Positions 1,872 to 17,605 of a stretch of 64,000 bases of DNA are shown here, piece after piece (within the stretch, counting starts at the first letter, position 1; each line of letters begins with the position of its first letter). This DNA is from Mycobacteriales bacterium (lineage in GTDB: Bacteria > Actinomycetota > Actinomycetes > JAFAQI01), in assembly GCA_035501255.1 (NCBI GenBank), contig DATJWM010000086.1:8203-72202 (forward strand). The letters are read 5' to 3'. The notes under the pieces are model-generated. The model was not told the origin of the DNA, ran no database searches, and saw only the letters and a list, made by a program, of their open reading frames with translations. The translations under genes and the position numbers were made by a program.

Positions 1872-2798
1872 GTGTCGCGAGACCAGGTGCGTCGCGGCGC
1901 CACGCTGGTCGCCATCCTCGCCGCCGCCGCAGGAATGTCGCTGACCTCGACGGCAACGGCCGCAATCGCCGCGCCGAAGGCGAAGTGCGACCTCGCAGTC
2001 ACGACGCCGTACTCGGCGGATCGACCGCTTCGCCTGCCCCTCGTTCTCGACTCGACCGGCAACGCCTACTCGGGGAGCGCGGTATTTCGCTCGATCACCG
2101 TGTCGGACACCAGACGTTCGAACAAGCGCTGGACGCTCAAGGCGCTCGCCGGCCCGTTGAGCTTGACGCCGGCGCAAGGCACCGCCGTGGGCGGCACGGG
2201 TGACGGCCAGATCAACTCCCAGAACGTCGGCATCTCGGAGCTGACCACCCTGCGCGCATGGCATGGCTTTTCTCTCGCCCATCACAACCTCACCCTGATC
2301 AACCGGACCGCGGCCTCCCCACCTGCGCCGGCGGCGGCGAGAGGAGGCCTCGGACTGGGTGGCTCGAAGGCGCACCCGATCGCGACCGCGCTCCATGGCC
2401 GTGGCTCCGTGCGCATCGGTGGCGTGCTCACGCTCGACGCGCCGACCTCGACAGCGGCCGGAAGCTTCGTCGGCGAGGTGACCTTCACCGTTGGCTGTGG
2501 GCGGGTGGTGGTTCCCGTCAAGCCGCCCAAGCACCATCACCATCACCATCACCATCACCACCACCACCCGCATTCGCCCAGGCCGACGCCGACCCCCTCA
2601 TCGACGGTGAAAGCCACCGGGGTGCCACGCGGGACCACCAACGGAGGCGGCAACGGCGGCTCGGGAGGCGTGATGCCGTTCACCGGCTTCGACCTCGCTG
2701 GATTCGTCGTCGCTGCGATCATCGCCTTGGCGCTCGGAGCGCTGTTGGTGGTGGCCGGTCGACGGCGTTGGTCGCAGCCGTCAGGTCCTGGGACCTGA
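1872..2798 (+). CDS. Secreted protein with 13-His tract, PT-rich linker and C-terminal sorting-signal-like anchor (MPFTG + TM + RRR)
   Basis: N-terminal signal peptide 'LVAILAAAAGMSLTSTATAAIAAPKA'. Run 'KHHHHHHHHHHHHHPH' at 2532-2576. The C-terminus 'GGVMPFTGFDLAGFVVAAIIALALGALLVVAGRRRW' has the tripartite layout of a sortase sorting signal. The internal module 'LTLDAPTSTAAGSFVGEVTFTV' is shared with the 4986-6842 protein. Confidence 0.6.
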   Translation: MSRDQVRRGATLVAILAAAAGMSLTSTATAAIAAPKAKCDLAVTTPYSADRPLRLPLVLDSTGNAYSGSAVFRSITVSDTRRSNKRWTLKALAGPLSLTPAQGTAVGGTGDGQINSQNVGISELTTLRAWHGFSLAHHNLTLINRTAASPPAPAAARGGLGLGGSKAHPIATALHGRGSVRIGGVLTLDAPTSTAAGSFVGEVTFTVGCGRVVVPVKPPKHHHHHHHHHHHHPHSPRPTPTPSSTVKATGVPRGTTNGGGNGGSGGVMPFTGFDLAGFVVAAIIALALGALLVVAGRRRWSQPSGPGT

Positions 2799-3728
2799 CG
2801 CCGCGGACCTCCGCCGCCAGAGATAGGCACCGCCAACCCCGACGAGAACGACCGCAACGATCACGCCCGCAATCGCGCCGGCATCCGAGCCGCCGCCGGA
2901 CGAGGACGCGTTGTCCTGCGACGCCGCGCCGCTCGTCGTGTCCGGGCCGGGAGAGGTCGTGCCTGAACCCGAGGCTTGGCTCGACGCTCCGCTCGACGGC
3001 TGGGAGGACGGGGTGGACGTGGAGGCACCGAGCGCGGCCGCGCGGGCGGCGATGTTCGCGGCACGACCGATCGGAGCGCCGACCGACTTGGCTGCCACAG
3101 GTGAGAGCAGCTGTGGTCGGCCACGTCCCTGCTTGTTCCACTTCGGCAGCGCGGACTCCGGTGACACGGCCCGACCGGCGGTGCAGTTCACCCGCACGTT
3201 TGTGACGCTGTGCCATGTCGTTCCCGTGACGTCGATGAACGAAGCCGCGTAATTCGTCGAGTAACCGGTGTCGACGCTGCTGTAGAGCACACGCAGCTCG
3301 ATGTAGTGGCCCGCCATCGCCGGGTAGTCGTTGAGAAAGTCCGACAGAGCGAGGTCGCGGGAGGTCGCCTGTGCCATCGGCACGGAAGCGTTGGTGTAAA
3401 CGCTCGCTGCGGTCAGCGTGTCACCGCTCCATTGGGCCGCGTCGATCCCGGGTCGAGGCTGGAAGGCGTAGAGCGTTGCCTTGCGCCCCTTTCCATTGAA
3501 CGGCTGCGGCGCGGCAGCGGTGCTCACTGCGCGCCAGACGAACGGCTTGTCGTACACGCTGCCGTGCGTGATCTGCTGACCGTGGCTGTTGCAGAATCCC
3601 ACGTGCCCCTGGGCGTAGGGGTCGCTCGGTACCGGTGCCGAGGCGCGAGCCGGCACGGCCGCGACGGCGAGGGATCCGGCCGCAATCAGCGCGGCGGCTG
3701 TCAGAGTCGAGGTTCGGATCAAGCGCAT
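2781..3728 (-). CDS. Surface-anchored hypothetical protein (signal peptide, Ser-rich linker, C-terminal TM + RRR)
   Basis: 315 aa. N-terminal signal 'LTAAALIAAGSLAVAAVPARA'. Ser/Gly-rich stretch, then 'AIAGVIVAVVLVGVGGAYLWRRRS' at the C-terminus. No recognisable catalytic motif. Confidence 0.5.
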   Translation of the reverse strand: MRLIRTSTLTAAALIAAGSLAVAAVPARASAPVPSDPYAQGHVGFCNSHGQQITHGSVYDKPFVWRAVSTAAAPQPFNGKGRKATLYAFQPRPGIDAAQWSGDTLTAASVYTNASVPMAQATSRDLALSDFLNDYPAMAGHYIELRVLYSSVDTGYSTNYAASFIDVTGTTWHSVTNVRVNCTAGRAVSPESALPKWNKQGRGRPQLLSPVAAKSVGAPIGRAANIAARAAALGASTSTPSSQPSSGASSQASGSGTTSPGPDTTSGAASQDNASSSGGGSDAGAIAGVIVAVVLVGVGGAYLWRRRSAASGPRT

Positions 3729-3746: not shown

Positions 3747-4871
3747 TCAGGTTGTTCCTGCCGAAGCCGGTCCGGTCGTGACCCGGGTCCCCCGCCGGAC
3801 ATTGCGCCTCCGTCGCACCGCAAAGACGGCGGCAGCAACGACGACGAGGATGAGCGCGAGCAGGATCCAGGGGATCGCGAGAAACGTTGCGCTCGCGGAC
3901 GCCGGCTCGGCGCCAGGGTCGACATCGCCCTCAGGGATGAGCGGAGTGAGAACGACGTGCGAGTGGTCGAAGATCGCGGGAGTGACGTCCTGCGCGTGCA
4001 CGGTGATCGACGCGGAATTGCCGGGCAGGAGCGCCGGGACGTTGCTGGCCGCAACCTTGACCGTCGAGCCGATCCAGCTGCTGACCGTCACCAGCTGGCG
4101 CGCACCCAGGTTGACGTTGCCGGTGTTAACCACCCGGTAACTGATCGTGGCGCTCCCTTTCCCGATCGGGTCGAGTGTTGCCGAATACGAGGTGTGCAGG
4201 CCTTCGACCTGAAGTTGTGGGTGCACCGGCCCGGACACCCGGATAGCGACCGGGACGGCCACCCGCTGCTCGAGCTTCGGGTTGACCTTCAGTCCTTTCC
4301 GGGTCTTCACCGCGGCGCTCAGCGAGGAGATGATCCCTGCCGTGTGGTCGCCCGGCGTCGCGTGGCGCGGGACATGCACCTGGACCGCCACGATCGCGCG
4401 GGATCGCGCCGGCACCCGAAGCACATGTCCGTGGTGCGGAAGACCGAGCGTGATCCATGCCCCCGCGTCGCGCGGGGTAGCCGCCTGCGGCTGAAGCCCG
4501 AGCTGTCCGTTCGCAGCGTTCGTCGCATCCCGTGCGTACAGCGCGAGCGTCAGAGGTTTCTTGGAAAAGTTCTCGATCCCGACATGGTCGTGAACGACCG
4601 CTCCAGGACTCACGAACCACTTGAAGTCCGGCCGCCCGTCGATCTTGTGCGCGTTGGCTGGCCCGATGCCCCACGCCAAACTCTTCGGCGACGGCGCGTT
4701 GTGGGTCGGCTCGTTGGCCGCGGGAACCGTGGCCGAGCCTCGGTCGAGCCAGTGCGACGGGCCGACGGTCGTGGCGATGGCGATGGCGAGGACGAGGACA
4801 AGCGCGCGGCAGATCCGATTCGCGGCCCTGCGGGCGAAGCGGTCGCGCGGGGTGGCCACACCGCTAGCCAA
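3747..4871 (-). CDS. Cell-surface protein with N-terminal signal/TM and C-terminal TM + RRRR tail (possibly DUF916/CscA-like, uncertain)
   Basis: 374 aa. N-terminal hydrophobic 'ALVLVLAIAIATTV'. C-terminus 'FLAIPWILLALILVVVAAAVFAVRRRRNV'. The central beta-rich region carries no enzymatic motifs. Confidence 0.45.
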   Translation of the reverse strand: MASGVATPRDRFARRAANRICRALVLVLAIAIATTVGPSHWLDRGSATVPAANEPTHNAPSPKSLAWGIGPANAHKIDGRPDFKWFVSPGAVVHDHVGIENFSKKPLTLALYARDATNAANGQLGLQPQAATPRDAGAWITLGLPHHGHVLRVPARSRAIVAVQVHVPRHATPGDHTAGIISSLSAAVKTRKGLKVNPKLEQRVAVPVAIRVSGPVHPQLQVEGLHTSYSATLDPIGKGSATISYRVVNTGNVNLGARQLVTVSSWIGSTVKVAASNVPALLPGNSASITVHAQDVTPAIFDHSHVVLTPLIPEGDVDPGAEPASASATFLAIPWILLALILVVVAAAVFAVRRRRNVRRGTRVTTGPASAGTT

Positions 4872-4985: not shown

Positions 4986-6842
4986 TTAGACCAGGCTTCC
5001 CACGAGGGTGAAGGTGATGGTGCCGGTGAACAAACCCGCCTCGGTGGAGCTCGGGGCGTTGAGGGTCAGCAGACCGGTCAGACCGATCGAACCAATCCCC
5101 TGCTGGGCCTGCGCGATGTCGTGCGCGCCGTTGCCCAGACCCGCAGTGCCGAGGTCCGTCGGCGCGACGGCCGGGTAGGCAGCCGGGTTGGCGAACGTCG
5201 TGAAGTTCGACGCGAGCCCGTTGAACCCGTTGCCACTGACCGGAACCTCGGTCAACCCGGTGAGACCGACGTCCTCACCACTGATCTGCGAACCGGCGTT
5301 GGACCCACCGTCACTCAGCGTCGACGCCGCCGCCTGGGCGGTCCAGGGCAGGTCACCGGCTCGGGTGTCGGTGACGTAGATGTCCTGCGTCGGGTCCGTC
5401 GCGCTTCCGCCGAAGGTAGCGCTCGCCGAATACACCGTGCCCGTGCTGTCCAGGTGCATGGTGCCCAGGTTCAGCGGGTTCTGGTTGGAGTACGGCGTGG
5501 TGATGCTCAGCACACCCTGCGGGATCGTGGCCTCGATGTTCTGCACGTCGGTGCACTGTGAACCGGTCGAGGCGCACGGACCGTTCGGGTTCGCCGACTG
5601 GCTGAACGTCGACGCCGCCGAGGTGGACGTTGCGCAAACCGTCGCGTCGGACGGGCTGAACACCGCGGTGATCGAGTGCGAGCCCGGCGAGTTGAACGTG
5701 TTGGTCGCGTCGAACTCGTTCGGCGTGCCCGGCTTCGGGCTAATCGGTCCTGCAACCTTCGTGGTGTCGTCGTAGAAGTTGACGGTACCGGTGCAGGCCG
5801 AAGCCGACCCGTAGTCCACCGTTGCCACGTAGCTGTTCTGGTCGCCGGCGTACTGACCCGGTGTCACCGACAGGTCGGTGCTCGTGGCCGGCGCCGGAGG
5901 CGCAACCGAGAACGGCACTGTTGCCGAGGTGGATGTCGTCAGGCTGGTGCCGATGTAGGGAGCGAACTGTGCCGTGAAGCTGTGCGTCGACGGGTTCGCA
6001 ACGCTGTCAGTCACGCTCGCCGTGTACGGGCCGGACCCGGACACGAGCTGGGTGGTCCCCACCTGGGTGGCGCCGTCGAAGAACGTCACCGTCCCGATCG
6101 GCCCGGTGTAGCTGCTCGGGACCGCGCTCGCGGCACTCACCGACGCGTTCAGCGTGACGCTCTCCGGGTTGTTCGAGGAGGTGTCCGGGCTGGTCGGCGA
6201 GGTGTGCAGCGTCGTGGTGGTCGTGTCCGTGGCGTCGGGGTAGGTGCCCGAAGCCGGGTACACGACCTGCCAGGTGTCCGCGCTCGGGTTGACCTGGATG
6301 TCGAGCGTGTCGTACTGCGTGGTGTCCGGCGGCTGGCCGGTTCCCGAGGTGTAGATCCGCAGCTGGTAGAGGTTCTGGTAGCCGCTGGTGCTCAGGTTGT
6401 TCGGGTACTCCCCGATGTAGTCGTTCATCGACAGGTCGGTCGACCCGCCGGTGACGAAAGGCAGCCCCGGAGTGCTGACGGCACTCGGCGTTCCGCTCGG
6501 AACCGGGCTGTAGGTCCCGGCGCTGAGCACGTCACTGCTCCAGGTCTGCGGGTTGCTTCCGGGCACCGGCGTAGCGACGTACAGCTGCGCCTTGGAGTCG
6601 CCCGAGCGACCGGCGTGGGACGCGATCGCGTAAGCGGCCAACGGGTGACCATCCAGGCTGCCGCCGGTAATCGGGGCACCCGAGGAGTTGAGCAGCGTGA
6701 TTGTTCCGATGGAGTTCGGGTCCGGTTCCCACCCGACGCTTGTCGTGGTGGCGGACGCGACGCCGCTCGCCGCGAGCACTAGCCCGCTCGCGAGCGCCAG
6801 GGATCCTGCCCCGGTAAGCGCACGTTTGAAGTTGGTTCGCAC
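4986..6842 (-). CDS. Large secreted Thr/Ser-rich repeat protein; N-terminal domain paralogous to the 16461-17585 product; C-terminal module shared with the 1872-2798 product
   Basis: 618 aa with signal peptide 'LALASGLVLAASGVASA'. N-terminus 'TTSVGWEPDPNSIGTITLLNSSGAPITGG...AYAIASHAGRSGD..QLY' matches 'TTPGWEPDPNAIGSITLYDSSGSPITSG...AYAVATHAGRSGD' in the 16461 gene. The C-terminus ends '...LTLNAPSSTEAGLFTGTITFTLVGSLV'. Confidence 0.6.
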   Translation of the reverse strand: MRTNFKRALTGAGSLALASGLVLAASGVASATTTSVGWEPDPNSIGTITLLNSSGAPITGGSLDGHPLAAYAIASHAGRSGDSKAQLYVATPVPGSNPQTWSSDVLSAGTYSPVPSGTPSAVSTPGLPFVTGGSTDLSMNDYIGEYPNNLSTSGYQNLYQLRIYTSGTGQPPDTTQYDTLDIQVNPSADTWQVVYPASGTYPDATDTTTTTLHTSPTSPDTSSNNPESVTLNASVSAASAVPSSYTGPIGTVTFFDGATQVGTTQLVSGSGPYTASVTDSVANPSTHSFTAQFAPYIGTSLTTSTSATVPFSVAPPAPATSTDLSVTPGQYAGDQNSYVATVDYGSASACTGTVNFYDDTTKVAGPISPKPGTPNEFDATNTFNSPGSHSITAVFSPSDATVCATSTSAASTFSQSANPNGPCASTGSQCTDVQNIEATIPQGVLSITTPYSNQNPLNLGTMHLDSTGTVYSASATFGGSATDPTQDIYVTDTRAGDLPWTAQAAASTLSDGGSNAGSQISGEDVGLTGLTEVPVSGNGFNGLASNFTTFANPAAYPAVAPTDLGTAGLGNGAHDIAQAQQGIGSIGLTGLLTLNAPSSTEAGLFTGTITFTLVGSLV

Positions 6843-7012: not shown

Positions 7013-8290
7013 TCAGCCGGATGAAACGTCGCCGAGGTCCTGGTAGTTCGGGGTGAAGTAGGCCGCGCTGATGTCCGGAGCGTTCGACGCCCGAGCGATC
7101 CAGCTGGTGCTGCCCTTCAGCAGGTCGTTCACGAAGTTCTTCGTGCCGCCTGGCTGGGAGGGCTTACAGCCGGAGTAGCTCGACGACGCACAAGTTCCCG
7201 AACCCGGCGTCAGGCCGAGGTCGTAGTCACGGGCGATGAAGTACAGCCCGCGGGTCGAGTCGTACACCGAGTCGCTGTGTGAAGTGTCGCTGTCGCTGGC
7301 CGGCTTCTGGTCAGCGGACGGGCAGTTCGGCGTCATGTCACCGGTGGTGCAGCCGCTGATCAGCGAGATGTTGAAGTTGGATGCGGGCTCCTGGCTGTTG
7401 CCGTAGTAGCCGCTCTGGATGAGGTTGATCTTGCCGACCGAGAACGGCTCGATCGCGTCCGCCGGAGTCGCCGCCAGCGTGACGCCGGTCGGGTCGTGCT
7501 CCTCACTGATCCGGATGCAAGTGCTCGAACTGATCGTCGAGTCGGACACACCGATGTCGGACTCGAAGAAGTTGCGAGTGCCCGAGCCGGACTGCGGGAT
7601 CACCGGAATGATGTGGTCGGTCGAGGCGCCGGAAGGCGCGCCCGGAACCTCAGCCCACTCGATTCCCTGGCTGCCGTCGCAGTGGCTGTAGATGTAGGCG
7701 AGTTGCGTGCCGTCAAGCGGGAAGCCGTTGAAGCTCACGCTCGACTTCGCGATCTCCAGGTTGTCGGTGGCGAACTGGAACACGTGCAGACCACCGCAGT
7801 CCGTGATACCGGCGCACGACGTCTGCTCCGAGCCCTTCGGCAACCGGGACGCACGGGAGAAGGTGAGCGACCCGGTTGGCAACCCTTGGTAGCCGCCGCC
7901 ACCGACCGAGTCCGCGATCAGCGCGCTGATACCCGCACCCGAGCCATCCGGACGCTCGACCGGCTTCGTGCCGGCCCGCAGCACCGCCGACGTTGTGCCG
8001 TTGCCGTAAAGCAACGCACCGGTGGAGTCGTAGAGCGCCCGGCCGTTGCCGTCACCGGTCGCGAAGTAGTTGTAGACGCTGTTCGTCTTGCCCGTGTTGT
8101 ACGCCGGGTCACCCGCGACGTCACCACTGAACAGGAAGTCCGCAGCGTTCTGAACCGTGTCAGAGCCGACAGCGACCGCGTCGCCCGGACGTGCTTGCGG
8201 ATCGGCCCACGCCGGCTGCATTGCAAACAGCAATGCGGCGGTGGTCCCCGCGGCACCGAGCGCCAGAGTCGCCCTTGCCTTTCTCGACAT
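7013..8290 (-). CDS. Secreted PstS-like (periplasmic binding protein superfamily) domain protein, divergent
   Basis: 425 aa with signal 'LALGAAGTTAALLFAMQPAWA'. 'AVGSDTVQNAADFLF' and 'IIPVIPQSGSGTRNFFESDIG' resemble the 'GSGSTW...' and 'IPIVPIVHSEGSGTSYQF' segments of the PstS at 12274-13956. Assigned by resemblance only. Confidence 0.4.
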   Translation of the reverse strand: MSRKARATLALGAAGTTAALLFAMQPAWADPQARPGDAVAVGSDTVQNAADFLFSGDVAGDPAYNTGKTNSVYNYFATGDGNGRALYDSTGALLYGNGTTSAVLRAGTKPVERPDGSGAGISALIADSVGGGGYQGLPTGSLTFSRASRLPKGSEQTSCAGITDCGGLHVFQFATDNLEIAKSSVSFNGFPLDGTQLAYIYSHCDGSQGIEWAEVPGAPSGASTDHIIPVIPQSGSGTRNFFESDIGVSDSTISSSTCIRISEEHDPTGVTLAATPADAIEPFSVGKINLIQSGYYGNSQEPASNFNISLISGCTTGDMTPNCPSADQKPASDSDTSHSDSVYDSTRGLYFIARDYDLGLTPGSGTCASSSYSGCKPSQPGGTKNFVNDLLKGSTSWIARASNAPDISAAYFTPNYQDLGDVSSG

Positions 8291-8460
8291 TCGCCCTCCT
8301 TGGAGGCAGTGCGGAGCCTTTCTCCGCCGGGGCGACCCTAGAGGCCCAATCGGGCTATCAAGCCGCTAGATCCTGAACAGCAGACGAACGATCACCACAA
8401 TCGCGCGATAGGCCTGCTATCGCGCGAGGCGGATGGGCTCCGTGTGACCACGGAGCGTCA

Positions 8461-9441
8461 TCACAGAAGGTTGGGGAGTAGCCGCGCTGCGGTCTCGGTC
8501 ACGACCCAGAGGATCGCGAGCATCGCCGGAACGCCGACCAGCCAGACCTGGCGGCCGCCCCATCGTCGATGCGCCCACACGAAGCCGATCCCGACGACGA
8601 CCAGCAGCTCCAACCAGAGCACCAGCGGGGTGAGCGCGGTGCGATCGATTGCCATCGCCACCTGGTTGGAGGGCTGAACCGTCGGTCCGCCTCCCGGCGA
8701 AGGTTGCGCCTTGCCGACCAGGTTGGCGTCGACGTAGACAACCTGAGAGGGCGCCCACCCACTGCGCCATCCGCTGCCCTCTGCGCTGACCAGAGTGAGG
8801 CGACCCTGGCCGGACGAGAGCAGCGGTGGTACCGGATCGCCAGGCCGTCGTACGTCGGTGACGCGATAGGTGAATGTGCCCTGACCGGTCACTGCCGTGA
8901 TGCCATCACCCGGTTGCAGCCGGGTGATGTGGGCAAACGGTGCACCAAAGGTGGCGCTCTTGCCAAAGACCACGCTCACGCCTGCCTGGCCGGGCAGAAC
9001 GGTGTCCACCCGGTGTCCCGGCCCCTTCTGCAAGTCGGTAGAGGTCGTGCCCTCCACCACAACGGCGCGGTTGATGCCGGCCTGGGAGGCGCTGATGAGA
9101 GCCACCGGCGCACCGTCGGTGATTTGCCCCCCCAGCGGCGCAACCTCGTTGGCCAGATCCGCCCGCAGGCTCGCGTACATCTGCGCCTGTGTGTGCCTCT
9201 CCTGAAAGCCGCTCAGCACCAACGCATACAGCACCACCCAAAACGCGAGTGCACACAACAGCGCGAGAACCACCAGGACCGTTCCGCCGGGTCCGGTGGA
9301 CGGCGGTCCGCCGGCCGCCCACACCGCGCGCATCCGTGCTCCGGACCGCTGGCGCCAACCCGCGAACCCTCCGGCCTCCGCCGGAGCTGACGCCGCGCCC
9401 GGATCGGAAGTGGGCGCCTTGTCCGCCACGCGGGTGCTCAT
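8461..9441 (-). CDS. Sortase-fold membrane protein (class E-like) lacking the catalytic cysteine (TLxTC replaced by 'TLVSA')
   Basis: 326 aa with an N-terminal TM helix. Sortase hallmarks 'GHRVDT', 'TFGAPFAHITRLQPGDGITAVTGQGTFTYRVTDV' (GAPF..L..GD.I......TY.V) and 'LTLVSAEG' at the TLxTC position. The DNA reads 'gtc agc gca', so the loss is not a single-base artefact. The only Cys lies in the TM helix. Two extra C-terminal TM helices. Confidence 0.6.
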   Translation of the reverse strand: MSTRVADKAPTSDPGAASAPAEAGGFAGWRQRSGARMRAVWAAGGPPSTGPGGTVLVVLALLCALAFWVVLYALVLSGFQERHTQAQMYASLRADLANEVAPLGGQITDGAPVALISASQAGINRAVVVEGTTSTDLQKGPGHRVDTVLPGQAGVSVVFGKSATFGAPFAHITRLQPGDGITAVTGQGTFTYRVTDVRRPGDPVPPLLSSGQGRLTLVSAEGSGWRSGWAPSQVVYVDANLVGKAQPSPGGGPTVQPSNQVAMAIDRTALTPLVLWLELLVVVGIGFVWAHRRWGGRQVWLVGVPAMLAILWVVTETAARLLPNLL

Positions 9442-9448
9442 CGGCCGA

Positions 9449-12325
9449 TCACGTCTTCGCGCCCGTTCGGCGCCAACCCCGGACCAACCGGGGTCCGATC
9501 ACCGCGATTGCGGTGACGACCGCCGCCAACAAGACGATCGGGATCGCGATACCCAACGGACCGACCGGCGTCGCGGGAGTCGCCACGGCGGCCGGGCTGG
9601 CACTCTCGCTCGGGGACGAAGCGGGAGACGACGCGGAGGTGGACGAACTCGGTTGTGGCGACGTTCCTCCGTCGCTGTGGGTCGAAGTCGGGCCGGGCGT
9701 TCGGGAGACCGGTGGCGTCGAGCGCTGTGACGACGGCTCGGTCTGGGTCGGTGTGGGGGTCGGATCAGGGCAACCCGACCACTTCGACCTCGTCTGCCCG
9801 GAGCCGTTGATGTTCGGGATTTCGCACTGCTGGTCCGAGACGGCCTGCGCTGCCCGAGCCGTATACGCCGACTCCGCGCCAAGGCCGTTCGCCGCGGTCA
9901 TCGGCAGGTAGCCCGGCGGAAGGTCGCCGAAGGAGTTGCCGGGCGTCTGCCCCGCCTTCGCCGCGAACGACAGCTGCTGGGCAAACGCGCTCGCCGCCTC
10001 AGACGACAACCCCGCACTCGGCACGCTCTCCGACACAAGCATCGTGCCCGGATATGCATGAGCAGTGCTGGAGCCGCTCCGCAGCTTGCCGTAGTCCATC
10101 GACCACGCGTTCATCGACGGATCGGGCTTCAGCGCACTCACTGCGCTGCGCATCGTCTTGGTTGATGCCCGCACGAACGTGCCATCCGCAGGGCCGTGGA
10201 TCTTCGACGTGGGTGACACCGACGACCGCGTCTCCAGCAGCGCGGTGTCGAGGTCGTAGCGTTTGGCCTCCGACAACGACACCACGCCGAGCATGAACCG
10301 CACGCCGGGCTGCTGACGAGGGTCGGCGCTGATCTTGTCGGCCGCCGCCACCGTGGCGATCGTGCAGTTGGTCGTCGAGTTCGGCAGTCCGAACTCCATG
10401 TCATAGGCGGCCGTGGACAGGCTCAGCACCGGGGCGGCAACCAGCGGGAGATACGGCACCTGGAACTGGGTCTGGGCGAAGCATCCTGACTTGTCGGCGT
10501 TGTAGGACTGGGTGGGGACGAAGGTGTCCTTGAGCGGCCAGAAGTCGACCGGAAGCTTCATCCCCTTGTATGCGGGATTGACCACCATCCCCCACGGATC
10601 GGGCTTGCCGTTGATGAACGCCCGGGCGGCCGGGTCAGCCTCGATGTAGGAGGTCAGGGCGCGCATGATGTCGGAGTTCGAGGACAACGCCATCAACTCG
10701 GCCCGGGCCTCGTAGTAGATCAGGTAACCCGGCTGCGGGCTCGCCTTCGGGATGTCGGGGTTAAGCGCTTGGAATTCCGGGTCATCGGTGATGTTCAGCG
10801 GGTTGTCGGCCATCGGACCGGGTGTCGTACCGCCGTCCGGAGAGCCGTCGTCCTGAGCAACCTCGTCGAGCACCGGGTAGGACTCGGTGAGTAACTTTGC
10901 GAGCAGCCTCGGGTCCAGCCTGACATCGAAGACCTCGTTATGGTCGCCGTCGTCGACCAGCGTGGCGATGGCAAACCCGTTGACCGCGACCGGTGCATTG
11001 ACGACGGGATGCCCCGACTTGCCCTCGGGTTTGGAAGGGTAGGTGTCATACGCAGCCTGAATGTTGCCTTCGGACAGGCTGTTGACGGAGGCCGGCTCCG
11101 CCTGCGGGACCTGTGTGAACGGCGTACGCTTCGGATCCGTGCAGAACGCCGGCGCCCACTGTTGGGCGGCCTCGGTCATCAGCTCCGAGCCGTACACGAA
11201 GACCGCGGGCTTGCTGCCGACCACCGAGCAGTAGTCCGCCGGCTTGGCAAAACTCAGCGGCACGGTGATGCGATTGCGCCAGTTCGACGCCGACCACCAC
11301 AAGGCGCCGGTGACGGACTCGAGCGCCATGTTTCCCGGATCACCATCAAGCTCGCGGGTTGCGTTCTCGGCCTGCCCCGACTGGTCGTCGGAGTAGGTGC
11401 AGTTGGCAATGTCCTGCGCACTGAGATCACCCCTGGCCTGCTCGTCACAACTCATCCCGTCGATCGGGATGACGACGAGCGAGCAGGGCACCGACGACGA
11501 ACAGCCGAGGGTCGCGTTGGTCTCGTCGCTCCAGAGAACGAACTTTGCGAGCCCGCTCCCATCGCTCCCGGTCGTGCCAAAAGTGGTGTTGTCCGGAAAG
11601 TCCGCCGTGAACGTACCCTGCTCGGGGGCCAGCTTGCTGCACGCCACCGTGGGACCGCTGTAGTAGGTCTTGCCATTGGCGCCGTCGAGAGGCTGGAAGT
11701 AGTCCGCCTCGTTGAGCGCGTACTTGCTGCAACCAGTGGGCAACGGCTTTGGAACGTTGTTGAAGGCGGGGAGATTTCCCGCGTAGCGATCCATTCGCCA
11801 CGGTGGGTAGTCAGTACCGGGCGCGGTCGCGTTGCGCTCACTCAGGTACTGCGTCCAGCAAGTGTTGGGGCTCAACCGCTGCGCAGCGGGCGCCTTGGAC
11901 GAGTCGACACCCCGGCACTCGAGGACCACGACCGGGTACTCCTCGAGGGTCGCCGCGGTCGAGGAGTTCGGGTCAGGATCGACGTAGTTGCTGGGATGCG
12001 CCCCCTTCCACGAAACGTTGATCTCCTGCAAGGTGCGCAGCTGCTTGGTCGCACTGACACTCACGGTCACTTTCCGCTTGTCGACGGTCTTGGTCTTCCC
12101 GTCCGGAAGAACGTCGCTGCGAGTGATCTGCTTACTGACCGTGACCGCGCCGGCGCCCGCAGCGCTCTTGGCCTGAGCCGCTCCCGAGGCGCCCGCGGCG
12201 CCTGCGACCTGCGCCAGGGAGCCGGCCGCGATCAAAGCCGCCGCAGCGATCGCGACCGCCCGACGCCGGCTGCTCACGACGCCGCACCCGGCGGCGGTGC
12301 GCCGGGCTTGGACCAGCGCCGCCAA
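9449..12325 (-). CDS. Large (~945 aa) surface-anchored Cys-containing hypothetical protein; PT/S-rich linker + C-terminal TM + RR tail
   Basis: Longest ORF on the track. The true start is probably the GTG near 12280 ('VSSRRRAVAIAAAALIAAGSLA' signal peptide), immediately after the pstS stop. The C-terminus reads 'PDPTPTPTQTEPSS...PVGPLGIAIPIVLLAAVVTAIAVIGPRLVRGWRR'. No recognised catalytic domain. Confidence 0.55.
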   Translation of the reverse strand: MAALVQARRTAAGCGVVSSRRRAVAIAAAALIAAGSLAQVAGAAGASGAAQAKSAAGAGAVTVSKQITRSDVLPDGKTKTVDKRKVTVSVSATKQLRTLQEINVSWKGAHPSNYVDPDPNSSTAATLEEYPVVVLECRGVDSSKAPAAQRLSPNTCWTQYLSERNATAPGTDYPPWRMDRYAGNLPAFNNVPKPLPTGCSKYALNEADYFQPLDGANGKTYYSGPTVACSKLAPEQGTFTADFPDNTTFGTTGSDGSGLAKFVLWSDETNATLGCSSSVPCSLVVIPIDGMSCDEQARGDLSAQDIANCTYSDDQSGQAENATRELDGDPGNMALESVTGALWWSASNWRNRITVPLSFAKPADYCSVVGSKPAVFVYGSELMTEAAQQWAPAFCTDPKRTPFTQVPQAEPASVNSLSEGNIQAAYDTYPSKPEGKSGHPVVNAPVAVNGFAIATLVDDGDHNEVFDVRLDPRLLAKLLTESYPVLDEVAQDDGSPDGGTTPGPMADNPLNITDDPEFQALNPDIPKASPQPGYLIYYEARAELMALSSNSDIMRALTSYIEADPAARAFINGKPDPWGMVVNPAYKGMKLPVDFWPLKDTFVPTQSYNADKSGCFAQTQFQVPYLPLVAAPVLSLSTAAYDMEFGLPNSTTNCTIATVAAADKISADPRQQPGVRFMLGVVSLSEAKRYDLDTALLETRSSVSPTSKIHGPADGTFVRASTKTMRSAVSALKPDPSMNAWSMDYGKLRSGSSTAHAYPGTMLVSESVPSAGLSSEAASAFAQQLSFAAKAGQTPGNSFGDLPPGYLPMTAANGLGAESAYTARAAQAVSDQQCEIPNINGSGQTRSKWSGCPDPTPTPTQTEPSSQRSTPPVSRTPGPTSTHSDGGTSPQPSSSTSASSPASSPSESASPAAVATPATPVGPLGIAIPIVLLAAVVTAIAVIGPRLVRGWRRTGAKT

Positions 12326-13956
12326 AGTAGCGGCGGAACGATCAGTGCGGCGAGGAACAGACCGACAGCGAGGAGCCCTAACGCCGTGCTGTTGTCCTGA
12401 CCGTCGGCGACCGTCACCGGCTCACCCTCAACGTTGGCGTTCGTGGTCCCCCCGGTCGATCCGACCCGCTGGCCGGTCACCGGATCGACCGGACCCGTGC
12501 TTGCCGATCCCGTCTTGGTCCGCCCGTTGCCGGATCCCGGCGAGGTCGGGCCCGGAGTCCCGCCTCCCTGGTTGGACCCGCCACCACCGTTCTTTTTGCC
12601 GCCGTCACCGCCCTGCGTTTTGCTCTGGTTCTGCTTCACGCTGGTGATCGAGGGGCCGGTCGAATCGTTGGGGGTCGTGCACGGTCCGTGACCCTGCTCA
12701 TCGCACAGCGGAGGCTCGGGGGCGATCTTGGCGAGGTAGTTCTCGGCGGGGTGGTTGGCGACGAAGGTCGGGTTCCCGCACGTGCTCACGTTCAGGTTGT
12801 TGAGCGAGACCTTCGAGTCAGCCTTGTGCAGCAACCCGATCTGCTGGAACCCTGCCTCCACCAGGTTGATCGGCAAGGCGGAGTACCCGAGGCCGCCGAC
12901 CGCGCCTTGGCCCTGGCAGATCGAGGTGTACAGAAAGTCGGCGAGAGTCTGGCGCTTCGGCGACGTCATCGTCCGGTCGCTGCTCGACGTAGGGATGATG
13001 CCGTAGGAGTACGACGAGACGGGATAGGTCCGTTTGTCGTTGTACCCGTATACGTCCTTCAAATTCTCGAGCAGGTAGTTGTTCGAGTGCCGGTTGTAGT
13101 TGATGATCGCTTTCGTCAACGCCACGGCCACGTTGTACTGCGTCGGGAGCGTGTAGTACCCCGCGGTGTTCTCGACCTTGGCGACCGGAATCTTCTTCGC
13201 GATCGCATAGGAATACTCGTCGTAGCCGATCGTCCCCTGCCCGGACGACGATGCGATGTAGTTCATCAACTGGTCCGAGCCGTTCTGAGCAATCTGTCCG
13301 GACTTGCCGCTCGGCCAGTACTCCGTCGGCTTGTCAGCTCCTGCAAAGCCGGTCCACAGGCTCCTGTCCTCCTGGGCGAGATACGCGGAGAACTGGTAGC
13401 TCGTGCCCGATCCCTCCGAATGCACGATCGGCACGATCGGGATCGAGGGGAACTTCCGACCGTTGTTGTCCGCAGAGATGTGGGAGTCGTCCCAGTTCTT
13501 GATCTGCCCGGTGAAGATCTTGGCAAGAGTCGGCCCTGACAACCGGAGGTTGCGCACGAGCTTGCCGGCCACGGTCAGGTGATATGGGAACGAGGTACCA
13601 CCGGCAACCAGTGGTACATAGGCGTATGGTCGCCCGTTGGACGTGTCGGACACGCCGGTCAGCGGGTCGTGACCCTGGAATCCGATGTCGGACACCGCGA
13701 AGTCGACCGCTTTGTTGGCGAAGTCCTGACGGCCCGCCGCCGAGCCGTTCCCGGTGAAGGTCACCCGCAGACCTTGTCCTGACACCTCGCCGATCCAGGC
13801 GTTGACCGCGTTGTAGGCCCAGGTCGAGCCGGAACCGTTGATCTGCGCCGTGCCGGTGGCGTACGACGGCGTCGCGGTCAGTGCGACCAGACCGGACGCG
13901 GCACACAGGGACAAAACCCGCGCCCGGGCGCGGCCGGCGCGGCGGTGTCCGGTCAT
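12274..13956 (-). CDS. pstS: Phosphate-binding protein PstS with Gly-rich C-terminal extension and C-terminal TM anchor
   Basis: Start ATG 13954-13956 overlaps the pstA stop (ATGA). Signal 'VLSLCAASGLVALTATPSYA'. PstS core motifs 'NGSGSTWAYNAVNAW', 'SAAGRQDFANKAVDFAVSD' and 'SEGSGTSYQF'. Then a 'GGDGGKKNGGGGSNQGGG' linker and 'ALGLLAVGLFLAALIVPPLLWRRW' at the C-terminus. The upstream part of ORF 12274-14271 is an unsupported extension. Confidence 0.8.
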   Translation of the reverse strand: MTGHRRAGRARARVLSLCAASGLVALTATPSYATGTAQINGSGSTWAYNAVNAWIGEVSGQGLRVTFTGNGSAAGRQDFANKAVDFAVSDIGFQGHDPLTGVSDTSNGRPYAYVPLVAGGTSFPYHLTVAGKLVRNLRLSGPTLAKIFTGQIKNWDDSHISADNNGRKFPSIPIVPIVHSEGSGTSYQFSAYLAQEDRSLWTGFAGADKPTEYWPSGKSGQIAQNGSDQLMNYIASSSGQGTIGYDEYSYAIAKKIPVAKVENTAGYYTLPTQYNVAVALTKAIINYNRHSNNYLLENLKDVYGYNDKRTYPVSSYSYGIIPTSSSDRTMTSPKRQTLADFLYTSICQGQGAVGGLGYSALPINLVEAGFQQIGLLHKADSKVSLNNLNVSTCGNPTFVANHPAENYLAKIAPEPPLCDEQGHGPCTTPNDSTGPSITSVKQNQSKTQGGDGGKKNGGGGSNQGGGTPGPTSPGSGNGRTKTGSASTGPVDPVTGQRVGSTGGTTNANVEGEPVTVADGQDNSTALGLLAVGLFLAALIVPPLLWRRWSKPGAPPPGAAS

Positions 13957-15059
13957 CGAACGGAGCCCTTCTGACGGGATGCGAGGAAACGAATGAGGAC
14001 GAAAACGACCAGCACGATGATGAGCAGCAGGCTCGCGGCACCGAAGGCGCGGGTGATGAAGTTGGGCTCGCCGCTGCGCACGCCCGAGTAGACGAACAGC
14101 GGCAAGGAGTTCATCGGGTTGTTGACCGGGTTCGTGTTGAAGTACGTCGACGCACCTGAGGTGATCAAAACTGGCGCTGTCTCGCCGACGGCCCGAGCGA
14201 ACGCGAGAATCAACGCGGTCGCGAGACCGGCTCCGGCCGTTGGCAGCACCACCCGCCAGACCATCCGCCACTTCGGAGCACCGAGCGCGAGCCCCGCCTC
14301 CCTCAGCCCGCCCGGCACAACCCGAAGCGAAAGCTCAGCCGATCGCGCGATGATCGGCAGCATGGTGATGGTGAGTGCGATCGCGGCGGCGAGTCCGCTC
14401 TTTTGCATCCCCAGGCCGACGATCAGCAGGGTGTAGACGAACAAACCGGCGATCAGGTCAGGAAGGGCGGTCATCGCCTCAACGACGGTTCGCACGGTAC
14501 GCGCGAGCGGGCCACCAACCTCCGTCATGTACACGGCGGTCGCGATTCCGAGCGGAAGTGCGACCGCGGTCGCGATCGCCAGTTCGATCAGGCTGCCGAC
14601 CACCGCGTGCAAGACACCACCGCGAGTCAGCGGATCCGTCGGCTGCACCGCGTTCATGTCCTGGGTGTAGAAGTTCATGTGGTGGAGCGCCGGCCACCCG
14701 CGAACGAACGTGTAGATGATCGTGGTGGCCAGGGCGAAGGCGACGATCCCCGCCCCGGCACAGATGATCGCGCGCATGAGTCGATCCACGACGACCGGGC
14801 GCGGGTGCGACATCGCGGTGACCGCGGTGTACAGCGCGAGGAAGCTGAGATACCAGCACACGATGAAGCCGAGCAGGCCATGTTCCGGAAGGAGCTCGCC
14901 GTAGACGATCCAGACGGCGCCGAGCGATCCGAACAGCGAGCCGAAGAAGGACAGCACGTCATCGGTCGTCCGGACGGCGAGCTCGCGCGGACGGTCCTCG
15001 CCGGCACCATCGGGGAGGTTGCCGGACACGGACGGCATCGGCAGTGACTCGGTCGACAT
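13953..15059 (-). CDS. pstA: Phosphate ABC transporter permease PstA
   Basis: 368 aa with 6 TM helices. ABC permease EAA-like region 'ARAVGETAPVLITSG'. Position after pstC and before pstS. Its stop overlaps the pstS start. Confidence 0.8.
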   Translation of the reverse strand: MSTESLPMPSVSGNLPDGAGEDRPRELAVRTTDDVLSFFGSLFGSLGAVWIVYGELLPEHGLLGFIVCWYLSFLALYTAVTAMSHPRPVVVDRLMRAIICAGAGIVAFALATTIIYTFVRGWPALHHMNFYTQDMNAVQPTDPLTRGGVLHAVVGSLIELAIATAVALPLGIATAVYMTEVGGPLARTVRTVVEAMTALPDLIAGLFVYTLLIVGLGMQKSGLAAAIALTITMLPIIARSAELSLRVVPGGLREAGLALGAPKWRMVWRVVLPTAGAGLATALILAFARAVGETAPVLITSGASTYFNTNPVNNPMNSLPLFVYSGVRSGEPNFITRAFGAASLLLIIVLVVFVLIRFLASRQKGSVR

Positions 15060-16243
15060 CAGATCTCCGTTGCCGCGCCACTACGGCTGCGAGTGACGAT
15101 CATCCCGGCGATCGTGTTCACGACCAGCGTCAGCGCGAAGAGGACAAAGCCGGCGGCGAGCAATGCCTTGAGCTGGAGTGAGGTCGAATCGCCGAAGCGA
15201 TCGGCAATCAACGACGAGGTCGTGATCGCACCGACCTGCAGCGCGTGAATGTTGACCTTGTAGACCAGCGAGATGATCAGCAAAACGGCGATCGTCTCGC
15301 CCAATGCGCGACCGAGTCCGAGCATCGTCCCCCCGATGATCCCGCCCCGACCGAATGGCAAGACGACCGTTCGAATCACGCCCCACTTGGTCGAACCCAG
15401 GGCAAGGGCGGCTTCACGTTCACCGATCGGTGCCTGCGCAAAAACGCCGCGCATGACCGCACACGTCAGCGGGGTCACCATCATCGCGACCGCGATCCCG
15501 GCGATGAACGCCGAAGCCGTGAACTGTGTCTCCGCCCAGGTCGCAGAGTGCGCATCGGTGTCGACGGACAGGAAGGGGATCCAACCGAAGTACTCCGCAA
15601 GCCAACGGGAAAGCCCGAGGACATGCGGTTGGAGGAGGAAGAAGCCCCACAGGCCATAGACGATGCTCGGCACCGCGGCCATCAGGTCGACGAGCGAGAC
15701 GAGGGTCGCCTTGATCCGCCTGGGCGCGAACTCGGTGATGAACAACGCCGTACACAACGCGAGCGGAAAGGCGATCGCGAGCGCGATCAGGCCGATCTCG
15801 ACCGTGCCGAACAGCGCAGCTGCCACACCCAACTTGTTCTGGTCCGGGTTCCAATCGGTTTCGGTGAAGAAGCTGAACCCGTAGTGCTTGATCGTCGGGA
15901 TCAGCTGAAGGGCCAGGAAGAACCCGATTGCGGCGGTCAGGACCAGAACGAGCACGCCGATGACCGTTGACACGCCGTTGAACGCACGGTCCGAAGGAGC
16001 CAGACCGGCATGGATGAACCGCGGTTTGTCAGGTGCTTCCGCGTCGAACGCGGTGATGTCGACGTCCGGCACTGTTACAGCCGTCGAACGGCGCTGGCCA
16101 CGCACCCAGCCACGGTGCTCGGGGTGGGCGACCACGGAGATGACTCGATCGAAACAGGTCGTGGCTTCGCAGCGAACAACAGGTGAACGACCACAACGCC
16201 CGGACGCCCAAGGCGGCCCCGGCAACGGGCAAAGCGGGTGCAA
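15059..16243 (-). CDS. pstC: Phosphate ABC transporter permease PstC (true start probably internal, ~16078)
   Basis: TM core 'FTETDWNPD', 'LGRALGETIAVLLI'. The annotated N-terminal ~55 aa ('MHPLCPLPGPPWASGRCGRSPVVRCE...') is non-membrane, Cys-rich and overlaps the PHO-box-like repeat. A GTG/ATG start around residues 46-63 is more plausible. Confidence 0.75.
   Translation of the reverse strand: MHPLCPLPGPPWASGRCGRSPVVRCEATTCFDRVISVVAHPEHRGWVRGQRRSTAVTVPDVDITAFDAEAPDKPRFIHAGLAPSDRAFNGVSTVIGVLVLVLTAAIGFFLALQLIPTIKHYGFSFFTETDWNPDQNKLGVAAALFGTVEIGLIALAIAFPLALCTALFITEFAPRRIKATLVSLVDLMAAVPSIVYGLWGFFLLQPHVLGLSRWLAEYFGWIPFLSVDTDAHSATWAETQFTASAFIAGIAVAMMVTPLTCAVMRGVFAQAPIGEREAALALGSTKWGVIRTVVLPFGRGGIIGGTMLGLGRALGETIAVLLIISLVYKVNIHALQVGAITTSSLIADRFGDSTSLQLKALLAAGFVLFALTLVVNTIAGMIVTRSRSGAATEI
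16160..16187 (-). promoter_or_regulatory. PHO-box-like direct repeat (GTTCACCTGTT GTTCGCTGCGA) upstream of pstCAS
   Basis: The minus strand reads 'GTCGTTCACCTGTTGTTCGCTGCGA': two 11-nt direct-repeat units with the GTTCACC core of actinobacterial PhoP/PHO boxes. It lies just upstream of the likely real pstC start. Confidence 0.4.
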
Positions 16244-16460
16244 TGGGTGGCGGCCAAGGTTAACGATCGGCGATTCATCGATGAAGCACAGATGACCATC
16301 TGAGGGAATCTGGTGCAGACCGCTCGAAACTGACCGTCAACCGCGCATGCTGTTGCGTCGCGGGGTGCGTTCCGAACCGGCCGGACGGACGGCCGGAGTC
16401 GCAACGCGCACCTGACGCATCGCAACCACCCAACTTTGCAGGCGGATACGGAGGACAGGA

Positions 16461-17585
16461 ATGGCACACCTTCGGCGACGAATCCTTGCCGGAATCGGCG
16501 CGCTTGCCGTCTCGGGGGTGACGGTCCTTGCGGCCGGCTCCTCGGCTTCGGCGGACTCGACCACCCCCGGCTGGGAGCCCGATCCGAACGCCATCGGCTC
16601 GATCACTCTCTACGACTCGAGCGGGAGCCCGATCACGAGCGGCAACCTCAGCGACGTACCGTTCGCGGCCTACGCCGTGGCGACCCACGCCGGCCGCAGT
16701 GGTGACGATCACGCCCAGCTTTACGCCTACACCCCCCAGGAGGGTGGCGCGAACCCACAAACCTGGAGCGGGGATGAGCTCGGCGCGAGCGCGTACAACC
16801 CGGTGCCCAACGGCACGCCTGCAGCGGTTTCGGCGAGCGGTAATCCGTTCGTGACCGGTACTGACCTGTCCATGGACGACTACATCGGCGAGTACCCGAA
16901 CAACCTCACCGACAGCGGCTATGCCGACCTCTACGAGTTGCGCATCTTCACCGCAGGCCCCTCCCAGCAGCCCGACACCTCCCAGTACGACCGGCTTGAC
17001 ATCTCGGTCGACTCCGGTGCGGGCACGTGGCAGGTCGTCTACCCGGGTTCGGCGCCGACGCTCAACGGCAGCGTCACCATTTCCGGCAAGGTGCGGGTCG
17101 GCAGCACCGTCACCTGTAACGCCTCCTTCACCGACGCCACGTCGACCAGCTACGCGTGGTCGGTCAACTCGGCGGCGATCAGCGGAGCCACCAAGAGCAC
17201 CTTCATGATCCCGGCGAAGGACTACAAGAAGTCGCTCACGTGTACCGCGACCGGCATGAACGGCGGCGGATCGACGCCAGGTACGAGTTCGGCCTCGAAG
17301 GTCGGGCTGGGCGCGGCCCTTCATGCGACGAAGAAGCCGACCATCTCCGGCAAGCCCGCCGTAGGCAAGACTGTGAAGGTCTCCCACGGCACCTGGTCGC
17401 CGGCGGCGAAGTCCTACGCCTACCAGTGGGAGCTCAACGGCAAGAAGATCAAGAAGGCCACCAAGGACAAGCTGAAGATCTCCAAGTCCGAAAAGGGGAA
17501 GAAGCTGTCCTGCAAGGTGACGGCGATCCTGACCGGTTACGCCGATGGTGCAACCACGACGAAGTCGGTCAAGGTCAAGAAGTAG
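16461..17585 (+). CDS. Secreted protein: N-terminal domain paralogous to the 4986-6842 product, plus two Lys-rich Ig-like tandem repeats
   Basis: 374 aa with signal 'ILAGIGALAVSGVTVLAAGSSASA'. The N-terminal ~200 aa are strongly similar to the 4986-6842 protein. The C-terminus has two ~65-aa repeats ('ISGKVRVGSTVTCNASF...YAWSVNSAAISGATKSTF...KKSLTCTATG' / 'ISGKPAVGKTVKVSHGTW...YAYQWELNGKKIKKATKDKL...KKLSCKVTA'). Confidence 0.7.
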   Translation: MAHLRRRILAGIGALAVSGVTVLAAGSSASADSTTPGWEPDPNAIGSITLYDSSGSPITSGNLSDVPFAAYAVATHAGRSGDDHAQLYAYTPQEGGANPQTWSGDELGASAYNPVPNGTPAAVSASGNPFVTGTDLSMDDYIGEYPNNLTDSGYADLYELRIFTAGPSQQPDTSQYDRLDISVDSGAGTWQVVYPGSAPTLNGSVTISGKVRVGSTVTCNASFTDATSTSYAWSVNSAAISGATKSTFMIPAKDYKKSLTCTATGMNGGGSTPGTSSASKVGLGAALHATKKPTISGKPAVGKTVKVSHGTWSPAAKSYAYQWELNGKKIKKATKDKLKISKSEKGKKLSCKVTAILTGYADGATTTKSVKVKK

Positions 17586-17605
17586 TTCAAGGCTCCGACC
17601 CACGA

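Follow-up and report, generated by a model that had tools for sequence, protein, structure and literature searches.

The locus analysed here lies in a 64,000-nucleotide stretch of contig DATJWM010000086.1 (assembly GCA_035501255.1, Mycobacteriales bacterium); we call this whole stretch the window, and the features described below are on its minus strand unless stated otherwise. Positions 8461-9441 are filled exactly by an open reading frame (ORF) of 326 amino acids, running from ATG to TGA, whose product has the fold of a sortase and carries other residues where sortases have their catalytic ones; we refer to it as pSrt, a pseudo-sortase. An alternative start at M37 (position 9333) would give a protein of 290 amino acids, which is the version in the database (P0001). 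The gene stands in a block with the order pstC-pstA-pstS'-g958-pSrt, after which come a hairpin, the genes g425, g618, g374 and g315, and then a gene for a PstB-like ATPase.

Based on the positive-inside rule and the predicted helices, we propose a topology in which the N-terminus of pSrt is cytoplasmic, the barrel lies outside the membrane, and a hairpin of two transmembrane (TM) helices is followed by a short tail, again outside. The segment before the first TM helix (TM1; residues 54-76, positions 9214-9282; helix 51-97 in the structure model) is Arg-rich and would be cytoplasmic; after it comes a conserved juxtamembrane helix with S77, E81, Q85, Y89 and R93. The sortase-fold β-barrel, predicted to be extracytoplasmic, takes up about residues 105-245 (8707-9129) and includes β4 (154-159), β7 (213-221) and β8 (233-242). 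The C-terminal hairpin (8479-8634) consists of TM2 (270-294) and TM3 (296-321), seen in the model as helices 270-294 and 296-325; the two are connected by a short conserved loop that is predicted to be cytoplasmic (RRWGxxQ, W294), and P305 and W312 are conserved as well. The tail, LLPNL(L) (8464-8481), is predicted to be extracytoplasmic; across 149 representatives, each of its residues L321, L322, P323 and N324 reaches 87-95% identity. A preliminary description of this gene, made from the sequence, had reported two extra C-terminal TM helices, and these are real and conserved. It had also placed the only Cys of the protein in the N-terminal TM helix; this residue is C63, inside TM1, and most relatives show Ala, Ser or Gly in its column.

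By fold and by Pfam, pSrt is a member of the sortase superfamily. PF04203 matches it at E = 6e-11 with 42.6 bits (cut-off 26.6), covering only residues 125-198, and a profile of the family, built from 33 relatives (A1), matched sortases of classes D, E and F in the PDB at E of about 2e-16. The AlphaFold2 (AF2) model, for which the same alignment served as input, has a mean predicted local distance difference test (pLDDT) score of 80, with most of the barrel above 90, and a Foldseek search of the model against the PDB gave only sortases as top matches (4d70: E = 8.5e-10, TM-score 0.74). The motif segments quoted in the preliminary description can all be found in the protein: GPGHRVD at 140-146, TFGAPF at 164-169, PGDGI at 177-181, TYRV at 191-194 and LTL at 215-217.

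The class to which these segments had been attributed is another matter: pSrt is not a class E sortase. The class E model of NCBIfam (NF033747) gives it 64.2 bits, below the cut-off of 160, and aligns only residues 53-197. In class E sortases, a Tyr in the β3/β4 loop (GxGH-Y) reads the Ala of the LAXTG sorting signal (PMC5148588); 5uus and 5go6 both carry GHY, and the equivalent position in pSrt is R144, in a column of Arg, Leu, Gln, Lys or Glu with Tyr in 6 of 121 sequences. LAXTG substrates are also lacking among the cluster proteins and in the 64-kb window. The structurally known class E enzymes, SrtE1 of Streptomyces coelicolor (5CUW), SrtE of S. avermitilis (5GO5/5GO6) and SrtF of Corynebacterium diphtheriae (5UUS), have both the catalytic triad and this Tyr, whereas pSrt has neither; it differs from them further in its two extra C-terminal TM helices and LLPNL tail, and in lying in a Pst-like operon without LAXTG substrates nearby, where theirs lie in surface-protein or housekeeping loci. 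Where the pSrt family has Thr or Ser and then Ala or Ser, the Clostridium perfringens class D sortase (4D70) reads TC, within 'MTIVTC'; its phylum, membrane architecture and gene context are unlike those of pSrt. The names that the source databases give to family members are 'class E sortase', 'sortase A', 'sortase' and 'hypothetical protein'; for pSrt, the label 'class E sortase' is very probably wrong.

To our knowledge, all described sortase classes (A-F) are cysteine transpeptidases. In pSrt, the TLxTC pentapeptide of the active site is replaced by TLVSA (T216-A220; 8782-8796), with A220 at the position of the Cys. The codons ctc act ctg gtc agc gca encode L215, T216, L217, V218, S219 and A220, and the frame is open on either side, so the agc-gca reading given in the preliminary description holds at the DNA level. 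In the profile alignment, the catalytic Cys of 4d70 ('MTIVTC') and that of 5go6 ('LTLVTC') both stand opposite A220. The catalytic His, which in SrtE1 comes directly after β4 (PMC5148588), has given way to K161 (aag; 8959-8961), the 'FGKS' of pSrt being aligned with the class E 'AGHR'; the frame is intact around this codon as well. At the position of the catalytic Arg in β8, aligned with 'HRLIVWA' of 5go6, stands V234 (8740-8742), and here the alignment is less certain than at the His and the Cys. The three residues coincide with the predicted end of β4, end of β7 and start of β8 in the AF2 model. The 'GHR' segment on which the class assignment had partly drawn is indeed present, but its H143 is not the catalytic His: it belongs to the GxGH motif of the β3/β4 loop, which is common to active sortases of classes C, D and E and is non-catalytic. 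Judging from these alignments, all three catalytic residues, His, Cys and Arg, are gone from pSrt, among them the two whose retention the preliminary description had still considered.

The same losses are found throughout the family. We examined the alignment columns in three samples, each including the query: 121 sequences with 120 close database homologues, 85 sequences with 84 loci from species-representative genomes (Streptomyces to Acidimicrobiales), and 149 sequences with 148 representatives of 50%-identity clusters from an exhaustive hidden Markov model (HMM) search. The absence of the Cys proved to be general: none of the 121, 85 or 149 sequences has a Cys in the former Cys column, which holds Ala, Ser, Gly, Thr or Val and rarely Glu or Leu. 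The former catalytic-His column likewise contains no His in any of the three samples. It is always basic, with 95 Arg and 26 Lys in the first, 78 and 7 in the second, and 138 and 11 in the third. The Arg column is hydrophobic or small (Thr, Val, Ala, Ile, Pro or Leu), with Arg in at most 3 of 149. No column of the alignment exceeds 10% Cys, and H143 is the sole conserved His. Since the triad is lost, thioester-based transpeptidation would be impossible for pSrt, and it is very unlikely that the protein acts as a transpeptidase. A Ser-dependent enzyme, which the preliminary description had allowed for, is also unlikely because no nucleophile is conserved and the general-base His is gone, as is the Arg: position 220 is Ala, Ser, Gly, Thr or Val, and the Ser or Thr at 219 is the ordinary Thr of TLxTC. 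We also rejected another Cys as the nucleophile, C63 being located in TM1 and not conserved.

The family is large and well conserved. The exhaustive HMM search yielded 606 cluster representatives at E ≤ 1e-30 and 3408 at E ≤ 1e-10, the latter set being expected to include true sortases; in the collection of species genomes, one degenerate pattern recovered relatives in 305 stretches, so that at least 305 species-level genomes carry one. The listed loci belong almost entirely to Actinomycetota, and the carriers include Streptomyces, Kitasatospora, Actinacidiphila, Kribbella, Cellulomonas, Janibacter, Terrabacter, Aeromicrobium, Nocardioides, Micromonospora, Polymorphospora and Microbacterium, together with Frankiales- and Jatrophihabitans-like metagenome-assembled genomes (MAGs), Nanopelagicales and Acidimicrobiales. 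Two contigs bearing pSrt were binned as cyanobacterial and acidobacterial; they are probably mis-binned, because the neighbouring genes are of the same actinobacterial type. Proteins of a Mycobacteriales MAG match those of the window at 100% identity. Between orders, pSrt proteins are about 45-60% identical, with many invariant residues, including some in the TM hairpin and the LLPNL tail. Conservation is found in the barrel motifs, in R198 and G201-D202-P203-x-P205 of the β6/β7 loop, and in D238 and W294; R198, D238, E130, T185 and H143 are conserved at 85-95%. Because identical substitutions recur alongside such strong conservation elsewhere, pSrt would be a pseudoenzyme under purifying selection. 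The family appears to be a conserved, non-catalytic branch of the sortases, new both in its membrane architecture and in the genes it is partnered with, and it seems to be undescribed: in the open full-text literature, with subscription-only papers outside the search, we found no description of a pseudo-sortase, an inactive sortase homologue or this cluster, and both a paper on five sortases of A. missouriensis and a preprint on Tat tail anchors are unrelated to the family.

The genomic partner is a Pst-like ATP-binding cassette (ABC) transporter. The block begins with a pstC-like permease gene (15059-16243), the exact start of which is uncertain, and a pstA-like one (13953-15059); like canonical PstSCAB, both score above the NCBIfam equivalog cut-offs (TIGR02138, 244.2 bits against 196.45; TIGR00974, 212.4 bits against 193.45). 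The substrate-binding protein encoded by pstS' (12274-13956) matches PBP_like_2 at E = 4e-33, reaches 174.7 bits with TIGR00975, under the cut-off of 205, and ends in a low-complexity stalk and a TM anchor. Next is g958 (9449-12277), which is predicted to encode a giant secreted PstS-fold protein and whose start was adopted from the database protein P0269. Its AF2 model (pLDDT 73) has PstS proteins as its best Foldseek matches, among them PstS3 of Mycobacterium tuberculosis (4lvq: E = 4.6e-10, TM-score 0.79, TMt). Its N-terminal β domain leads into a PstS-like domain that carries insertions; a stalk rich in Pro, Ser and Thr follows, and the chain closes with a TM helix and a basic tail. The protein falls into no Pfam family, is called mostly 'hypothetical protein' in the sources, and has at least 614 database relatives; 14 Cys residues are invariant across its homologues. 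The genes are tightly packed, pstC and pstA overlapping by 1 nt, pstA/pstS' and pstS'/g958 adjoining without a gap, and g958 and pSrt being separated by a 7-nt spacer.

Beyond pSrt, g425 (7013-8290) encodes a secreted PBP_like_2/PstS-related protein that matches the PstS family weakly, has homologues with PF12849 and carries no membrane anchor. With pstS' and g958, the cluster therefore encodes three PstS-fold proteins, two of them with C-terminal anchors. The product of g618 (4986-6842) is secreted and has a Big_3_5 domain by Pfam and a C-terminal domain that is WxL-like by motif only; its C-terminal end, TGTITFTL, is conserved across loci. The surface protein encoded by g374 (3747-4871) combines an N-terminal domain resembling WxL-interacting proteins (WxLIP_PGBD, 25.2 bits against a cut-off of 27.3) with a C-terminal TM anchor. 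The translation of g315 (2781-3728) gives a secreted protein whose stalk is rich in Ser and which is anchored by a TM helix at the C-terminus; the gene is syntenic in 15 of 44 loci. The PstB-like ABC ATPase (832-1656) scores 333.5 bits with TIGR00972, whose PstB equivalog cut-off is 343.2; in four loci tested, the scores are 331-338 bits, all just under the cut-off, and the PstB-like copies may form a distinct PstB paralogue group. Since both PstS' and PstB fall below their equivalog cut-offs, the system would be a paralogous, Pst-like one. PstS' retains equivalents of T10, S38, D56 and S139-G140-T141 of Escherichia coli PstS and differs from that protein in having His for R135 and Glu for D137, all of these being residues that ligate phosphate in the E. 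coli protein. Unlike canonical PstS, it is held by a C-terminal TM helix and not by a lipobox, and unlike canonical PstSCAB, the operon of the window adds two further PstS-fold proteins and a pseudo-sortase.

A surface-protein operon whose products end in sorting-signal-like C-termini had been proposed for this region, and the C-termini of the anchored neighbours do resemble the back half of a sorting signal, in that a TM helix and a basic tail follow a stalk of low complexity; among 70 g958 homologues, the TM helix is found in 68 and the basic tail in 64. The front half is missing. The cluster proteins contain no meaningful LPXTG or LAXTG, L[PA]xT[GAS] occurring in 3 of the 70 g958 homologues, which is the chance level, and the ORFs of the 64-kb window include neither a second sortase-like ORF nor a credible substrate. 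The operon is therefore not a sortase-substrate operon but that of a Pst-like ABC transporter with PstS-fold surface proteins. By eye, many g958 anchors open on the outer side with x-[AL]-[LI]-P and close on the inner side with G-P, and the PstS' anchors have P-P-[LV]-L ahead of the basic tail; such recurrent motifs suggest specific helix-helix recognition rather than generic anchoring.

The association of pSrt with these genes extends far beyond the window. We counted homologues on the same strand in the 44 loci that have 8 kb or more of sequence to either side: a PstB-like gene is present within 10 kb in all 44, g958 in 43, g425 in 40, pstS', pstA and pstC in 37, and the WxL-like and WxLIP-like genes in about 25. 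Directly upstream, pSrt has g958 as its neighbour in 47 loci and pstS' in 8; directly downstream, it has g425 in 45 and pstB in 13. In three loci (L001, L002, L004), pSrt and the upstream gene share a 4-nt start/stop overlap. The arrangement varies: pstC-pstA-pstS'-pSrt-pstB in Kitasatospora and Streptomyces sp. CB01881, pstC-pstA-pstS'-pSrt followed at some distance by g425-g958-pstB in Kribbella, and in several Streptomyces g958-g425 with the WxL-like and WxLIP-like genes, further genes and then pSrt-pstB, pstC and pstA being absent within 10 kb. In a Microbacterium MAG (L070, 9608-11799), pSrt and pstB stand alone between recR and ask (compare L043, 9923-11709). In the loci as a whole, pSrt is a fixed member of the cluster of Pst-like and PstS-fold genes.

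From these findings, we propose that pSrt is a non-catalytic membrane adaptor of a PstS-fold surface and transport complex, and we put the probability of this reading at roughly 0.55. The role as a chaperone or retention factor that the preliminary description had suggested is of this kind and, given the loss of the triad, would be the best reading. The protein would be a sortase-derived pseudoenzyme with three TM helices and its barrel outside the membrane, kept under selection across Actinomycetota. In SrtA-type enzymes, hydrophobic residues of β4 and β7 line the peptide groove, and in real sortases the β6/β7 loop selects the sorting signal. In pSrt, the groove-lining hydrophobics appear from the strand register to be retained (V157, L159, L215, L217), and the β6/β7 loop is among the most conserved parts of the protein. 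The barrel may thus still bind a peptide segment without cutting it, by way of the former substrate groove and the β6/β7 loop with R198 and G201-D202-P203-x-P205; in addition or instead, the conserved TM hairpin may pack against the helix of a partner. In either way, pSrt would hold or position the C-terminally anchored g958 and PstS' proteins beside the PstC/PstA permease, with g958 as the first candidate partner. The fold, the loss of the triad, the conservation across the family and the synteny are shown by the analysis, whereas the adaptor role, the identity of the partner and the lack of any enzymatic function are what we infer from them, and a role in phosphate uptake would follow from the homology of the neighbours, not from pSrt itself.

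Three points weaken the case for the adaptor role as we have drawn it. In some Streptomyces loci and one Microbacterium locus, pSrt stands beside pstB while both pstC and pstA are missing from the surrounding 10 kb, so its essential partner may be neither the permease nor g958. The strictly conserved basic residue at the former His site might, together with the conserved R198, D238, E130 and H143, belong to a new catalytic centre and not to a binding site. The single apparent fusion of g958 and pSrt, the 1211-residue P0159, in which the two are joined in a topologically sensible way, comes from a long-read MAG of Microthrixaceae (L064); in another apparent fusion, P0369 (1525 residues), a g958-like part is combined with a PstS domain (PF12849), and these proteins could be Rosetta-stone cases or artefacts of long-read indels.

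The second of these points leads to an alternative in which pSrt has remained an enzyme and the old pocket has acquired a new chemistry; it could, for example, be a hydrolase or a transferase in which the Arg or Lys at 161 works with H143, E130, D238 or a Thr or Ser, its substrate in the cluster being a peptide or a compound that contains phosphate. Position 161 being basic in every sequence of every sample, and the other residues at 85-95%, conservation is tighter than plain decay of a pocket would leave, and the phosphate-related setting of the operon would suit such an activity. Yet there is no conserved nucleophile at or beside the Cys position, H143, E130-G-T and most of the other conserved residues are common to true class C, D and E sortases, where they are structural, and we know of no enzyme that uses a sortase barrel without its Cys; we consider this reading unlikely. 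The barrel might instead bind the cell wall. Real sortases bind lipid II near the β7/β8 loop, and a pSrt that had kept this second-substrate site and served through it as a cell-wall or lipid II tether would anchor the Pst-like complex at sites of wall synthesis instead of binding the partner proteins. In the clade of the window, the loop carries a conserved GWRSGWAP, and the cluster encodes a protein with a WxL-interacting, peptidoglycan-binding-like domain. GWRSGW is, however, not family-wide, W225, R226 and W229 being variable or deleted in Streptomyces, Kribbella and others, and such a tether is improbable. A bolder extension of the adaptor role, which we hold to be just as improbable, is a non-covalent 'sorting' machine: the barrel would recognise the stalk or anchor of PstS-fold proteins without cleavage, the three TM helices would connect it to the permease or the ATPase, and the whole would work as a phosphate-binding relay across a thick wall, possibly driven by ATP as in FtsEX or MacB.

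The loci in which pstB follows pSrt directly, 13 in number, raise a related question, namely whether the PstB-like ATPase has pSrt as its partner in the membrane; in the manner of FtsX or MacB-type proteins, the three TM helices would then transmit ATP hydrolysis in the cytoplasm to the sortase-like domain outside and make it move, for the assembly or release of surface proteins. The pSrt-pstB pairs of several Streptomyces and of the Microbacterium MAG without pstC and pstA nearby, the sub-cut-off scores of the four PstB-like proteins and the conserved cytoplasmic loop RRWGxWQ are in line with this. On the other hand, the ATPase, which keeps about 70-80% identity from locus to locus, is plainly PstB-like, so that docking on PstC/PstA is expected; the cytoplasmic loop, with its roughly 7 residues, leaves no room for an ordinary coupling helix; and in most loci pstB lies 3-9 kb from pSrt. 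This makes an ATPase partner quite unlikely. Pseudoenzymes often regulate active paralogues, and with class E and D sortases as its nearest relatives, pSrt might regulate a true housekeeping class E sortase encoded elsewhere or act as a decoy for it, for instance as a competitor for substrates. We regard this as highly improbable: in the loci examined, pSrt is never beside a sortase or LAXTG proteins and is linked to Pst-like genes instead, and the window holds neither a sortase nor a substrate. Finally, the missing residues are almost certainly not an artefact, whether a sequencing error, a frameshift or a decaying sortase pseudogene. The frame is intact at the Cys and His sites and the same changes occur in hundreds of independent genomes and metagenomes, and an error at the Cys codon was rejected on these grounds.

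Under the adaptor reading, pSrt would be a tangible example of how the scaffold of a sortase can be put to a non-catalytic use. Labels such as 'class E sortase' and 'sortase A' for members of this family inflate sortase counts and mislead the prediction of substrates. That pSrt is so regularly linked to a second transporter of the Pst type, one with several anchored PstS-fold proteins, suggests an envelope system that is still unstudied; Actinomycetota of soil and freshwater probably use it to acquire phosphate. There are cultured carriers, such as Cellulomonas humilata ATCC 25174, Aeromicrobium sp. Root495, a Kribbella species and Streptomyces olivochromogenes, which makes the question directly testable.

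Between pSrt and g425, 35 nt past the stop of pSrt and ahead of the ribosome-binding site of g425, lies a perfect, GC-rich 10-bp hairpin (8402-8426), which was spotted by eye and has a folding energy of -27.9 kcal/mol (z = -3.55). A scan for consensus terminators and promoters around pSrt called nothing, the hairpin being missed because it has no T-run; it is possible that it acts as a terminator, an attenuator or the mRNA end of the pstC-pSrt transcript. An Rfam scan of the window gave no match, and a search for direct repeats resembling PHO boxes was uninformative, with 1 match against 0.66 expected by chance.

The downstream surface proteins recall the WxL/Csc clusters of Firmicutes, in which a WxL protein is found with a DUF916 protein. 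The g374 product comes near the WxLIP_PGBD cut-off, as given above, and the g618 product shares its C-terminal domain, with WxL-like motifs, with the product of a plus-strand gene at 1872-2798; this likeness is based on motifs only, and the Pfam WxL model matches neither of the two proteins. In contrast to the clusters of Firmicutes, those with pSrt are actinobacterial, and we know of no Csc cluster linked to Pst-like genes or to a sortase-fold protein. The gene at 1872-2798 (plus strand), which is convergent with the cluster, encodes a secreted protein and has a GC content at third codon positions (GC3) of 0.82; the first approximately 200 residues of its product are 41% identical (E = 2e-26) to the WxL-like C-terminal domain of g618, and a run of 12 His follows. 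A minus-strand ORF over it ('g308', 1647-2573) was rejected as its shadow. The g374 product also matches the NCBIfam model GVDTG_CTERM ('GVDTG sorting domain') weakly, at 19.4 bits against a cut-off of 29, its C-terminus reading EGDVDPG, then the TM helix, then RRRR; we found no literature on the GVDTG signal.

At the other end of the block, a plus-strand gene at 16461-17585 is divergent from pstC. It encodes a secreted protein of 374 amino acids with an N-terminal domain that by eye is like that of g618, followed by a Lys-rich Ig-like repeat; the minus-strand ORF 'g442' (16275-17603) was rejected as a shadow of this gene. About 2 kb upstream of the Pst-like operon, the window encodes a polyphosphate kinase 2 (PPK2; 18337-19281, minus strand; E = 3e-95), and a PPK2 gene is also found near the cluster of locus L004. 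Its presence nearby is in keeping with a phosphate-related region.

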